A stretch of DNA of 64,000 nt, from assembly GCA_036381415.1 (NCBI GenBank), contig DASVCV010000002.1:84091-148090 (forward strand). Reading direction: 5' to 3'. The notes under the pieces were generated by a model. That model saw nothing but the letters and a program-made list of their open reading frames with translations, made no database searches and was not told the origin of the DNA. This DNA comes from Patescibacteria group bacterium (lineage in GTDB: Bacteria; Patescibacteriota; Microgenomatia; UBA8517). Positions 16,306 to 44,060 of this stretch are shown here, in pieces. Position 1 is the stretch's first letter; the number at the start of each line of letters is the position of its first letter. A program made the translations under genes and the position numbers.

Positions 16306-16507
16306 GGTGTTGGGAGAGAAAATTTGGGTTACGACTACTTCTTGAGTATCCAGCTCGTTACTTGTATCAAAAGGCAATTGAGCCATGCTTTCTAAGGTAG
16401 CTAGCATTCCCTTTATTAAAAACTCTTTTGTAGAGACAGTTTCTTTAGACATAAAGAGGATTTTAAAGGATTTTGGGGTGGTTTTGCAAGCCTAAATTTG
16501 AGCTTGC

Positions 16508-16536
16508 TTGCAAGGCTAGATTGGCTCTGGTATAAT
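16508..16536 (+). promoter_or_regulatory. sigma70-like promoter TTGCAA-17nt-TATAAT upstream of rplC (S10-spc cluster)
   Basis: read directly. Confidence 0.5.
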
Positions 16537-16599
16537 TGGCCCATCGTGGAGGTGATTTTAAACTAATAACCTCGGAGTGAGCTCAAGCGCCTGATTAGG

Positions 16600-16623
16600 G
16601 GTGCCTGATGGCACCTTTTTTAT
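16600..16623 (+). terminator. intrinsic-terminator-like hairpin GGTGCC-tgat-GGCACC + TTTTTTATT inside the rplC leader (candidate attenuator)
   Basis: perfect 6-bp stem, 6 T; located between promoter and rplC ATG. Confidence 0.5.
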
Positions 16624-39712: not shown

Positions 39713-39758
39713 GCTTAGAAATTAGCCTTCAAAATACCCCTTTTATGATATAATAGCC

Positions 39759-40082
39759 TTGCTCTGGAGGAAGGGTAATCGCGCTTTCCAGGCTCAAACG
39801 AGCCTAGAGAGTGAGGAAAGTCCAGGCAGCATAAGGCACGGTGCCTAGCTTAATATGCTAGGACGGGAGCCTTACAGAAATGTAAGGTGACCGCTAGTTA
39901 GAGCAACAGAGACTACGACTCATTCTGAACCGAATAGGTTTGGAAAAGAGAGTGAAAAGAGCAATCCTCCCGGCTGCAACCTCCGAATGGGACGTTTGAG
40001 GTGCCTTACCGAGTCCCGAGGTTTGAGGGCATAGATGGATGGTTACCTAAAACAGAACCTGGCTTACTATCCTTCAGAGCAC
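39759..40082 (+). ncRNA. rnpB: RNase P RNA (bacterial type)
   Basis: GAGGAAAGTCCAGGC (P4 5' strand) and ACAGAACCTGGCTTA (P4 3' strand) with compensatory G->A / C->T change relative to E. coli GUCCGGGC/ACCCGGC; P1 pairing GCTCTGGAGG (39761) with CCTTCAGAGC (40071); TATAAT at 39749-39754. Confidence 0.85.
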
Positions 40083-40111
40083 AAAAAGATGAGTTCTGGT
40101 ACAATAGCTTC

Positions 40112-40555
40112 ATGCGTTTGGTGGTTCAGAGGGTTAAAAAAGCTGAAGTTACAGTAGTTTCTTCAGGTAAAGTGGCAGGGTCAATTGAAAAAGGATTATT
40201 TGTTTTAGTGGGTGTTAAAAAGGGAGATACCAAAAAAGAGGCTGAGATACTTGCAAATAAAATAGTTAAATTAAGAGTAATGGCAGATGAAGCAGGAAAG
40301 ATGAATTTGTCTGTAGTAGATACTAAGTCAAAGATTTTGGCTGTTTCTCAGTTTACTTTATATGCAGATACAAAAGGAGGGAATAGGCCTTCTTTCATAC
40401 AAGCAGAAGATCCAGAAAAGGCTGTAGAAATCTACAATCATTTTGTAGCAAAAATTAAAGAGCTAGGAGTGGAAACTGAGATAGGTAGTTTTGGGAGTGA
40501 AATGAAAATTGATACAGAATTAGATGGTCCCGTTACAATAATTTTTGAGACTTAA
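40112..40555 (+). CDS. dtd: D-aminoacyl-tRNA deacylase
   Basis: MRLVVQRV start, SQFTLYAD motif; ORF-track N-terminal extension (40001-40111) is the 3' part of rnpB. Confidence 0.88.
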   Translation: MRLVVQRVKKAEVTVVSSGKVAGSIEKGLFVLVGVKKGDTKKEAEILANKIVKLRVMADEAGKMNLSVVDTKSKILAVSQFTLYADTKGGNRPSFIQAEDPEKAVEIYNHFVAKIKELGVETEIGSFGSEMKIDTELDGPVTIIFET

Positions 40556-41153
40556 GGAATTCTTCTAGTCTTTTCTTTGTTCTAAACTGTCTGCCTATTG
40601 ATACGAATAGTCTGTTCATTTCTGACCAATATTTTTTTGGCACAATCTTTTCTAATTCTTTTTCAGTTTGCTGGGGAGTTTTTGTTTTTACCCATCCAAG
40701 AAGATTTGTAATTCTATGGACATGAGTGTCTACAGCAATTGCTGGAATATCAAATGCCCTATTTAAGACAAGATTGGCAGTTTTGGTTCCAACACCTGGA
40801 AGTTTTATTAGATCCTTTTTGTTGTTTGGAATTTTTCCCTTAAAATCAGATATAACAATTTGAGCAAGCTTTTTAAGGTGTTTTGCTTTTGTTTTATGAA
40901 AGCCTACTTTTTTTATTAAGTTCTCAATCTCTTTTTCTGTAAGTTTATTTAAAGAAGAAACATCAGGAGCTTTTTTAAAAAGGTTTTGGGAAACTATAAG
41001 AGTAACTTCGTCACGGGTTCTAGCTGAAAGAACAGTTGATACCAAAGTTTTGTAGGGATCTTTACCAAATATTTCTAAAGGAACGAGCTGGTAGTTTTTC
41101 TTGAATACAGTAAATACTTTATTGAAGTTATACACTTTTCTTTTGGTATACAA
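40533..41153 (-). CDS. HhH-GPD superfamily DNA glycosylase (endonuclease III-like, no Fe-S C-terminus)
   Basis: LPGVGTKTANLVL helix-hairpin-helix, catalytic D. Confidence 0.7.
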   Translation of the reverse strand: MYTKRKVYNFNKVFTVFKKNYQLVPLEIFGKDPYKTLVSTVLSARTRDEVTLIVSQNLFKKAPDVSSLNKLTEKEIENLIKKVGFHKTKAKHLKKLAQIVISDFKGKIPNNKKDLIKLPGVGTKTANLVLNRAFDIPAIAVDTHVHRITNLLGWVKTKTPQQTEKELEKIVPKKYWSEMNRLFVSIGRQFRTKKRLEEFLKSQKLL

Positions 41154-41221
41154 AAGGAAACCCTGTGAAACAAGTATTAACTTGTTAGTAGGATTTCCCT
41201 TTGGTTAAGTCGAGATTGTGG

Positions 41222-41353
41222 TTAGCCCCCAATCTTGAACATTGTTGTGCCACACACTTCACACTTTCCTTTCTTAGCTTTCTTTCCATTTTTCATGGTA
41301 ACATCCTGAATATCTTTTCCTTCTCTTTTAGCGCGGCATTTTACACAATACAT
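41222..41353 (-). CDS. small zinc-ribbon protein (43 aa; CxxC...CxxC), unlisted in ORF track
   Basis: translated by eye: MYCVKCRAKREGKDIQDVTMKNGKKAKKGKCEVCGTTMFKIGG; strong SD GGAGGTG 7 nt upstream. Confidence 0.6.
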   Translation of the reverse strand: MYCVKCRAKREGKDIQDVTMKNGKKAKKGKCEVCGTTMFKIGG

Positions 41354-41418
41354 CAAAATAATCACCTCCCTTCAATTTGAACCAAGTAAAAACTTGTCAG
41401 ACTCAGTATACCATCTTT

Positions 41419-41476
41419 GCGAGGCTAGACACGCACAGAGCGAGGCTAAAGACTTTTTTAGTGAGGCTAAAGCAAG
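41419..41476. repeat. three direct copies of G(C/T)GAGGCTA(A)AG spaced ~21 nt, upstream of the small Zn-ribbon gene
   Basis: gcgaggctagac / gcgaggctaaagac / gtgaggctaaagcaag read directly. Confidence 0.6.
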
Positions 41477-41702
41477 TTGGCTTCACAATTTTTGTGCCAG
41501 ATCTTAGGCATTTTTTCACGCACGGGATTTTGAAAGTACAGGCTCAGGTGTTTTTTTAATTGCCTCTTGACAAGGCCTTCATCTCATTGACGATTGGAGT
41601 GAAAAGAAATAATCTTAAAATACAACCTTGACAGCAGTTATAATGCTCAAATACAATGTTTGAGTTAAATTGTTACTCAAGTTTTGAAAGCAAAAGCTGA
41701 CT

Positions 41703-42158
41703 TTGAATCAAGTACTACCATTACTAATAGGAATAAGTATTATCTGGCTTTTGGCCTTAAGCTTTTTGTATTGGAAAATTCTTTCTCATTACAATAAACT
41801 AACAAAGGGTACAAAGAAGGAAGATTTGAGTTTGATTTTGGATAAAATTTTGGAAAGACAGAATCTTAACAGAAATGAAATTGTTAAGATTGAAGGGGAA
41901 GTAAAAAAGTTAATCCAAGAAGGAGCAACTCATATCCAGAAAGCTGGAGTAGTAAGATTTAACCCATTTAGTGATACAGGGGGAGACAGCAGTTTTTCTC
42001 TAGCATTACTAGACGGCAATTTAAATGGTATAGTTATAACAGGGTTACATACTAGAGAAAGAACAAGAGTGTATTTGAAAGCAGTAAGTAAAGGAAAGAG
42101 TAGGTATGAGCTATCAAATGAGGAAGAGAAGGCAGTAGCAGATGCCATTAAGCACTAG
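41703..42158 (+). CDS. DUF4446-like membrane-anchored protein (TTG start)
   Basis: N-terminal TM, RFNPFSDTGGDSSFSLALLD segment recalled as DUF4446-like. Confidence 0.5.
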   Translation: MNQVLPLLIGISIIWLLALSFLYWKILSHYNKLTKGTKKEDLSLILDKILERQNLNRNEIVKIEGEVKKLIQEGATHIQKAGVVRFNPFSDTGGDSSFSLALLDGNLNGIVITGLHTRERTRVYLKAVSKGKSRYELSNEEEKAVADAIKH

Positions 42159-43475: not shown

Positions 43476-44060
43476 ATGTCAAGACTTGAAGATATAATTA
43501 CCTCAAAAGTTAGAGTAAAAATTGTAGAGCTTTTCTGCTCTAATCCCCGTGAGATGTATCATGTGCGTGGAATAGTTAGAGAAACTAATGAAGAAATAAA
43601 TGCAGTAAGACGTGAGCTTCTAAGACTAGATGAAGCAGGAATGATTAAAAAAGAAAATAGAGGCAACAGGGTTTACTATTGGTTAAGAGATGATTATCAA
43701 ATGTATGGGGATTTGGTTTCAATGGTAGCAAAAACCACGGGGCTTGGGGCAGCTCTTATTAATAACAAGGCAAAAATAGGAAAGCCTGCTTTTATTATGT
43801 TTTCAGGAAAGTTTGCAAGACATAAAATGCGAAAGAAGGATGATGAAGTAGATATTTTAATAGTAGGAGATATAACTTTGCCTGAACTTGCAAGTTTAGT
43901 AAGAGCTGAAGAATCAAAGAGAAAAATTGAAATTAATTACACTGTAATGACAAGAGAGGAACTTAACTTTAGAAAACAGCGACGCGATCCATTTTTGATA
44001 AGTATTCTTTCCCAGAGCAGAGTTATGATAATTGGGGATGAAGATGATTTAGTTTCTTAA
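43476..44060 (+). CDS. winged-HTH domain fused to minimal nucleotidyltransferase-like domain
   Basis: N-terminal wHTH-like segment; C-terminal FSGKFARHK...DDEVDILIVGD resembles GS-x(n)-D-x-D NTase signature. Confidence 0.45.
   Translation: MSRLEDIITSKVRVKIVELFCSNPREMYHVRGIVRETNEEINAVRRELLRLDEAGMIKKENRGNRVYYWLRDDYQMYGDLVSMVAKTTGLGAALINNKAKIGKPAFIMFSGKFARHKMRKKDDEVDILIVGDITLPELASLVRAEESKRKIEINYTVMTREELNFRKQRRDPFLISILSQSRVMIIGDEDDLVS

Follow-up and report, generated by a model that had tools for sequence, protein, structure and literature searches.

We investigated a 64-kb stretch of contig DASVCV010000002.1 from a Patescibacteria group bacterium with a Woesebacteria-like genome, referred to here as the window and numbered from its first letter, and within it a small minus-strand gene and the DNA immediately upstream. 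The gene belongs to an already known family, DUF5679, and the window copy is a real, missed member of that family, with a defined promoter and a clade-restricted, non-random triple repeat upstream of it. Judged from their sequence, the repeats may be a lineage-restricted operator, i.e. protein-binding sites for a multimeric factor, a reading that we hold at about even chances. The transcription unit comprises the following features:

41405..41413, minus strand: extended -10 element TGGTATACT, with TATACT at 41405-41410 and TG at 41412-41413; a recognisable -35 is absent
41378..41400, minus strand: hairpin element CTGACAAGTTTTTACTTGGTTCA of the 5' untranslated region, from the inferred transcription start site, with the hairpin proper at 41383-41396 (from folding)
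41363..41370, minus strand: Shine-Dalgarno sequence GGGAGGTG, 9 nucleotides (nt) before the ATG (read from the sequence)
41222..41353, minus strand: DUF5679 coding sequence, stop codon included, encoding 43 amino acids with two CxxC pairs in a predicted three-stranded zinc ribbon (from sequence and Pfam)
41151..41203, minus strand: intrinsic terminator, with a 14-bp outer stem, a nested 7-bp hairpin at 41166-41188 and a U-run (from folding)

The open reading frame (ORF) runs from an ATG at 41353 to a TAA at 41222-41224, and its product, MYCVKCRAKREGKDIQDVTMKNGKKAKKGKCEVCGTTMFKIGG, is the 43-residue sequence with two CxxC pairs that an earlier note on this DNA had written out. That note suggested a DUF5679-like family of this form and called for a hidden Markov model (HMM) search of the peptide; this search returned a match across the full PF18930 (DUF5679) model (profile positions 1-40 of 40, E=9.4e-16, 58.1 bits against a cut-off of 27), confirming the suggestion. 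We found 97 close homologues, most of them labelled Woesebacteria, with identities of 64-95%, and in a profile search the family amounted to 3880 clusters at 50% identity. Cysteines C3/C6 and C31/C34 were invariant or nearly so across 65 homologues, and an AlphaFold2 model of the protein (predicted local distance difference test score 88.7) contained three beta strands in a confident zinc ribbon. The two CxxC pairs are accordingly modelled as a compact zinc-ribbon fold, for which metal binding is predicted. The window protein, which is small and very basic, shares with other members of PF18930 a stand-alone size of ~43-47 amino acids, a pair of CxxC knuckles and the family consensus, MYCVKCRAKREGK....VTMKNGKxAxKAxCEVCGTTMFKIGG; nothing structural sets it apart from the family, and the window copy is merely uncalled in its own genome.

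Across ten orthologous loci the nucleotide differences fell almost all at third codon positions (0/1/16 by codon position against locus L001), as did all eight of the eight changes between the window and its sister species, L027. The DUF5679 ORF is a genuine protein-coding gene under strong purifying selection. An alternative start at a GTG at 41365, given in a mechanical list of ORFs, was rejected, as it falls within the Shine-Dalgarno sequence and the N-termini of the homologues, which begin M(M)YCVKCR, agree with the ATG.

A database look-up found no record of the exact 43-residue protein, nor of the window protein encoded by the divergent neighbouring gene, DUF4446. DUF5679 was likewise uncalled at its position in a conspecific contig (L028) and in the sister genome L027, in line with its earlier description as unannotated. 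In other assemblies (P0002, P0003 and P0005) it was called as a protein of 66-73 amino acids, with 23-30 spurious N-terminal residues, and these over-long models read through the Shine-Dalgarno sequence and the promoter; the extended N-terminus of P0005 suggests that its promoter is close to that of the window. Missing or wrongly started calls are thus a systematic annotation problem for this family, which is widespread, near-invariant within Woesebacteria and kept in small genomes. A correct gene model helps annotation, and marks DUF5679 as an independent, probably strongly expressed unit. Members of PF18930 carry the NCBI name 'DUF5679 domain-containing protein', and in the literature on DUF5679 we found no functional study, the mentions being domain lists in polintovirus and virophage papers. 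Some of the DUF5679 proteins recovered in a search of representatives (P0102-P0108) carry two tandem copies of the domain. In one of these (P0107, 262 amino acids), the copies are followed by a sub-threshold Toprim fragment, perhaps by fusion or because the call reads on into a gene for a topoisomerase or primase. Beyond these tandem copies and the single sub-threshold fragment, domain fusions gave no clue to function.

The signals for expression were conserved with the gene. The strong Shine-Dalgarno sequence reported earlier (GGAGGTG) is kept upstream of DUF5679 orthologues, and the TATACT placed about 50 nt upstream of the gene in the same note ends 51 nt ahead of the ATG. Every locus examined had a TATACT -10 with a TG-type extension upstream of DUF5679 (mostly TG-N; TGATATACT in L011), at distances of 33-157 nt from the ATG, with the remaining spacer unalignable between most lineages. 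Within the window, four of five TGNTATAMT sites were intergenic and correctly oriented, among them those of the RNA of ribonuclease P (RNase P) and of two operons. As the -10 is conserved and its other instances in the window lie at the starts of genes or RNAs, we accepted TGGTATACT as an extended -10. It resembles the extended -10 (TGnTATAAT) of sigma-70-type promoters in having TG one base upstream of TATACT and no usable -35, and we noted no difference from them. The sequence would place the transcription start site at ~41396-41398.

L027 retains the stem of the 5' hairpin, though the loop differs there, and the element is absent from a further relative, L010. At the other end of the gene, a G+C-rich hairpin followed by a T-run was also found after the DUF5679 stop codon in L001, L002, L003, L005, L008, L009 and L027, and the pairing of the nested terminator hairpin is kept in L027 via compensatory changes. 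Relatives share the gene order DUF4446 (divergent), DUF5679, nth. The locus is a self-contained unit of extended -10, 5' hairpin, strong Shine-Dalgarno sequence, coding sequence and intrinsic terminator. We additionally identified a palindromic 23-nt element whose two copies, 19/23 identical and the only two in the window, flank the coding sequence (41378-41400 and 41166-41188, minus strand). One copy is the 5'-terminal hairpin of the inferred mRNA, and the second sits within the loop of the terminator. Both hairpins persist in L027 with different sequences (the 3' copy through compensatory changes), so that conservation seems to act on structure and not on a shared binding sequence.

Upstream of the extended -10 lie three direct repeats, whose positions relative to the start site refer to the inferred site:

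41419..41429: repeat C, promoter-proximal, GCGAGGCTAGA on the plus strand; core 41419-41427, TAGCCTCGC on the gene strand; ~-29/-21
41440..41451: repeat B, GCGAGGCTAAAG on the plus strand; core 41440-41448, TAGCCTCGC on the gene strand; ~-50/-42
41461..41472: repeat A, GTGAGGCTAAAG on the plus strand; core 41461-41469, TAGCCTCAC on the gene strand; ~-71/-63
41479..41486: partial inverted copy GTGAAGCC (gene strand), forming an imperfect palindrome with repeat A that was flagged as a terminator-like hairpin of the plus strand (41461-41486); not conserved in L027 and probably incidental

The earlier note had described three direct repeats at a spacing of about 21 nt. We identified a shared core on the gene strand, TAGCCTCRC, followed by a 12-nt linker, and both start-to-start distances are exactly 21 nt. 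When the entire window was scanned for equally spaced triples (10-11 nt, at most one mismatch, spacing 12-40), the triple of the DUF5679 promoter was the only one recovered. Among 200 first-order Markov shuffles, a triple occurred in three (1.5%) at a length of 10 and in none (0/200) at a length of 11. The single word, taken as a 10-mer or a 9-mer with one mismatch, was not over-represented in the window, indicating that it is the phased clustering that is unusual and not the word. Repeats occurring elsewhere in the genome at random frequency had been named as an outcome that would speak against the array; the word by itself is ordinary here, and the phased triple is nearly absent from shuffles.

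The strongest argument that the repeats are functional is internal to the genome, in that the cores and linkers of the array differ sharply in how far they repeat. Between neighbouring copies in the window, the cores are identical at 17/18 positions and the linkers at 8/24 (Fisher p=8e-5), and in L027 the corresponding values are 18/18 and 8/24 (p=5e-6). The excess of core over linker identity argues against a decayed whole-unit tandem duplication and favours binding sites. The core boundaries were picked after the data had been seen, which weakens the contrast; it misfits a decayed duplication even allowing for this post hoc choice of register.

If the repeats are an operator, the 21-bp register would bring all three onto one face of the DNA, and the array would span the place of the absent -35 together with two helical double-turns further upstream. 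Access of RNA polymerase could then be controlled by a protein, probably not DUF5679 itself, that binds these sequences specifically as a head-to-tail multimer. Since the promoter is without a -35, either an activator or an occluding repressor at -29/-21 would be mechanistically sensible; both the binding of protein to the repeats and the direction of regulation are what we infer.

Known direct-repeat operators offer partial parallels. The LytTR-type box bound by ComE consists of two imperfect direct repeats of 9 bp joined by a linker of 12 bp (PMC4005675), and LytTR boxes (ComE, AgrA) share with the window array the 9-bp core, the 12-bp linker, the direct orientation and a promoter whose -35 is poor or absent (PMC4005675, PMC4227749). 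They differ in having two copies, whereas the window has three, and in lying upstream of the -35 (the proximal AgrA repeat is centred near -60; PMC4227749), whereas the proximal core of the window, at ~-29/-21, would lie inside the -35/-10 spacer. BldC forms head-to-tail multimers on variable numbers of direct repeats (PMC5859096), and AgrA and PhoP-type regulators, too, are known to multimerise on such repeats. Like the sites of BldC and of OmpR/PhoB-type regulators, the array places several sites of one orientation on a single DNA face beside a promoter, an arrangement for which cooperative binding of a multimer would be expected (PMC5859096); BldC protomers, however, occupy adjacent 9-bp sites, about one turn apart, whereas the window sites recur every two turns. 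By analogy, the array might at best work like a LytTR-type operator, and we do not claim membership. TAGCCTCRC bears no known resemblance to the LytTR consensus of the AgrA/ComE type.

We compared the array across relatives of the window genome, of which L010-L012 were all that a metagenome scan with DUF4446 recovered, the closer ones coming from the protein database. In L028, whose DUF4446 protein is 99% identical to that of the window, the spacer is identical. In L027 (DUF4446 87% identical), CTTAGCCTCAC, ACTAGCCTCAC and TCTAGCCTCAC occur at the same 21-nt register, and the cores at the positions of repeats A, B and C are all TAGCCTCAC. The spacers of the window and L027 are 81% identical, and their third codon positions have diverged by 19%; as the two divergences are equal, the spacer evolves at a neutral rate. 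In L010 (DUF4446 67% identical), TAGGCT occurs twice, 21 nt apart and at the same distance from the -10, the counterpart of repeat C being TAGGCTCAG, with a degenerate third element 19 nt further upstream. In a neighbour-joining tree of DUF4446, the window, L028, L027 and L010 form one clade, sister to a clade whose loci carry an additional small ORF (described below), with L002 and L005 outside. The array is thus confined to a small clade, consisting of the window genome, its conspecific and its sister species, and is degenerate in one further relative. Parallel core changes, C-to-G in L010 and G-to-A in L027, were rejected as signs of co-evolution, since the neutral expectation is ~0.1-0.6 such changes and the observation is not significant.

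Several results weigh against an operator. Between the window and L027, core positions changed at 2/27 and other positions at 57/287, which is in the expected direction and not significant (p=0.13-0.21); both core changes affect position R, the degenerate one. Conservation in L010 is no higher for cores than for linkers (16/27 versus 12/24, by alignment count). The array is absent from seven other lineages (L001, L002, L003, L005, L008, L009 and L011), and other Woesebacteria thus have DUF5679 promoters that function without it. No second paired site was found in the rest of the window. The paired pattern was also sought in 185,579 representative genomes, without a match in Patescibacteria (the source genome lies outside that collection); the 14 matches were all in unrelated phyla and were all whole-unit tandem repeats. 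No candidate regulator was found, and none of the five neighbouring proteins scanned has a LytTR domain. Finally, the DNA of the repeat region is homologous to coding DNA in the sister clade, from which the recurrence of AGCCTC could in part be inherited. The earlier proposal of a multimeric-factor operator is therefore plausible, with support from the contrast between cores and linkers and from the register kept in L027, and finds no backing in core conservation, which is not significantly above neutral, in a second pair of sites or in other promoters. If the operator is nonetheless real, it would be among the very few concrete cis-regulatory elements proposed for a bacterium of the candidate phyla radiation, and would provide a handle for finding its regulator by DNA-affinity capture. 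None of these results alone changes a long-standing question.

The only regulator-like gene in the neighbourhood encodes a syntenic protein of 194 amino acids (43476-44060, plus strand; also 194 amino acids in L001, L002, L027 and L028), whose winged-helix signals all stay below threshold (PaaX-like, 18.7 bits against a cut-off of 24.8). Whole-unit repeats of 21 nt or 11 nt built on TAGCCTCGC, unrelated to the window locus, were seen in Bacteroides, Kriegella, an alphaproteobacterium and others (L024:4915-5015, L018:160-220, L021:480-535 and L014:1440-1495).

The genome search for further repeat clusters that the earlier note had called for was run within the 64-kb window alone, and yielded no second pair and one related single site. 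This site, TCTAGCCTTGCAA at 16508-16520, matches repeat C at 12/13 positions (one T/C transition) in the opposite orientation, and lies over the -35 of a ribosomal-protein operon promoter, with a variant, TAGGCTTGC, 24 nt away. TAGCCT is seemingly enriched at other extended -10 promoters in the window. Two such occurrences were rejected as regulon sites, that at 39754 because it is part of RNase P RNA (its 5' end) and is conserved as such, and that at 39723 because it is not conserved in L027, leaving the site at 16510 as the sole remaining lead. The ribosomal-protein promoter itself (16486-16620, plus strand) is a strong TTGCAA-17-TATAAT promoter with a TG extension (16508-16536), upstream of an L3-L4-L23-L2 operon, and its -35 region carries TAGCCTTGC and TAGGCTTGC (opposite strand), 24 nt apart. 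The leader of this operon, of ~135 nt, contains a Shine-Dalgarno-like GGAGGTG and a terminator-like hairpin at ~16598-16616, possibly an attenuator.

A possible, though more doubtful, explanation is that the repeats are a neutral, functionless relic of local duplication within the spacer, which evolves fast and shares homology with the 3' part of a gene for a small membrane protein (KRRTRKQK...SLLIASLILCLELVLYF). The gene in question is the small ORF of the sister clade (L001, L003/L004/L007, L008, L009 and L011), in which the spacer holds a same-strand ORF of 91-100 amino acids:

L001:3707-4000, L003:1850-2152, L007:785-1087, L008:2501-2803, L009:398-673 and L011 (minus strand of the stored locus): small ORF; the homologous region of the window is ~41403-41580

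The members of this family have an invariant N-terminus (M.KRRTRKQK), a variable middle with V-K-G/W-Q and a C-terminal membrane helix, SLLIASLILCLELVLYF. The L001 and L003 proteins are 31% identical (E=1e-11), and further members were found in P0100, P0101 and L011. The ORF always lies between DUF4446 and DUF5679, and has no Pfam match. The VLY codons that end its helix contain the extended -10 of DUF5679, and AGCCTCGCTCTGTGC of the window aligns with AGCCTCATACTGTGC of L001, which codes for SLILC. That the DUF5679 promoter overlaps, in the sister clade, the end of a gene for a small membrane protein exemplifies the turnover of coding and regulatory sequence.

That this family is real, and that Ser-Leu codons (AGC CTN) already recur in it, lends the relic substance: in L008, AGCCTT, AGCCTC and AGCCTA occur in the helix-coding part. 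The two proximal units of L010 resemble a nearly whole-unit duplication of ~19-21 nt at the same place, suggesting a duplication-prone site, and the non-significant excess of core conservation against L027 or L010 and the lack of other paired sites agree with neutrality. A duplication old enough to have randomised the linkers should, however, have randomised the cores as well, yet these retain 17/18 identities against 8/24. Moreover, the repeats in the ancestral coding sequence share 5-6 nt at spacings of 15 and 12 nt, not 9-12 nt at 21 nt. An HMM of the family scored ~0 bits on the window frames, and the family is absent from the window clade, L002 and L005. With that HMM score, and with a DUF4446 tree that leaves loss and gain unpolarised, we dropped the repeats as a pseudogene remnant of the small ORF and kept the homology of their DNA to coding sequence in the sister clade. 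Loss of the ORF in the window clade and its de novo gain in the sister clade both fit the tree.

A more elaborate version of the operator, which we regard as improbable, would have it built on the membrane-helix coding DNA of the sister clade with a LytTR-like geometry, tying DUF5679 to the promoters of the translation machinery and including the site at 16508-16520 in a regulon. If this were true, a coding sequence would have been exapted into a regulatory sequence, or a gene would have been born de novo across a promoter-upstream region.

The gene product itself had also been suggested as the autoregulator, i.e. DUF5679 would be a DNA-binding protein acting on the three repeats, which we consider very unlikely. 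The presence of the repeats at the promoter of a small, very basic zinc ribbon, with a weak fold likeness to the zinc ribbon of the repressor NrdR, invites such a reading; the Foldseek matches are nevertheless non-significant (E 0.37-1.2, template modelling (TM) score 0.42-0.51). DUF5679 proteins ~81-95% identical to that of the window occur in L001, L002, L003, L005, L008 and L009, where the promoters are without the motif, and the L010 protein differs at three residues, yet the cores there differ (TAGGCT). The 3880 clusters of the family imply a general function, not one bound to a clade-specific motif. The suggestion of autoregulation was thus not borne out, given near-identical proteins in relatives that do not have the repeats and a likeness to NrdR at E values of at least 0.37.

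Comparisons of the protein beyond its family were similarly unspecific. Against the Protein Data Bank (PDB), Foldseek recovered a generic zinc-ribbon resemblance to NrdR, Rpp21 and LysW alone, always at E of at least 0.37; the top matches overall, NrdR and Rpp21, had E values of 0.37-3.6 and TM scores of ~0.4-0.5 (Rpp21 alone, E 0.7-3.6). A sequence search of the PDB gave nothing significant (best 2x5r, E=0.034; S27e, E=0.17), and in Pfam there was no Rpr2 match even at E<=1, and no NrdR match either. The likeness to the zinc ribbons of the NrdR N-terminus and of archaeal Rpp21 (Rpr2) lies in the three-stranded Cys4 topology; NrdR has an ATP-cone and Rpp21 has N-terminal helices, whereas DUF5679 is without either. 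Pipelines of the Joint Genome Institute name several DUF5679 family members 'RNase P subunit RPR2'. We rejected DUF5679 as an Rpr2/Rpp21 protein of RNase P, as no Rpr2 model matched and the fold matches were non-significant.

We give scarcely any credence to the repeats as codons of a small heptad-repeat ORF, either on the minus strand at 41403-41519 (FSLT/FSLA/SSLA) or on the plus strand at 41394-41507 (CEAR/SEAK/SEAK). A period of 21 nt does equal seven codons, each frame stays open over 37-38 codons in L027 as in the window, and the 21-nt whole-unit repeats on the same word in unrelated genomes have a layout that would suit coding heptads. Neither start has a Shine-Dalgarno sequence, however, and the non-synonymous to synonymous changes against L027 (8:2 on the minus strand, 10:2 on the plus strand) are at the neutral expectation. 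L010 has stops in all frames, and the linkers are unrepeated, unlike those of true coding tandem repeats.

Equally remote is a plus-strand antisense or divergent small RNA that would contain the repeats and end at two terminator-like hairpins with T-runs (41461-41486 and 41494-41511), the second of which (TGCC...GGCA, with A/T-run flanks) is conserved in L027, L010 and L005, since no plus-strand promoter was found, the first hairpin is not conserved in L027, the region folds no better than shuffles (z=-1.18; minus strand z=+0.62) and Rfam gave no match across 41000-41800. With no Rfam match, and folds of the repeat region on both strands no better than shuffles, the idea of a small RNA was dropped, together with that of an anti-Shine-Dalgarno sequence.

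We additionally identified several elements in the DNA flanking the DUF5679 locus. At 41494-41517 (GTGCCAGATCTTAGGCATTTTTT on the plus strand), a TGCC..GGCA hairpin, whose stem is kept and whose loop is changed in L027, looks like a plus-strand terminator between the divergent promoters. At 41559-41572 (ATTGCCTCTTGACA on the plus strand), a motif TGTCAAGnGGCA (TTGACA on the DUF4446 strand) is present in every orthologous spacer and codes for V-K-x-Q where the small ORF is present. There is no good -10 at 17 nt from this motif, which may serve the divergent DUF4446 operon as a -35 or as a binding site; a better promoter for that operon is TTGACA-18-TACAAT at 41628-41657.

Beyond DUF5679, the window encodes a class A RNase P RNA (39746-40082, 110.8 bits), with its own extended -10, TGATATAAT, ending 9 nt upstream. 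This RNA is found at a distance of 1-2.5 kb from DUF5679 in the window, in L028, in L027 (there inverted), in L002 and in L005, and was undetected in the flanks of L001 and L008. A mechanical ORF at 40001-40555 overlaps its 3' end, indicating that the D-Tyr-tRNA deacylase encoded there starts further downstream (MRLVVQRVKK).

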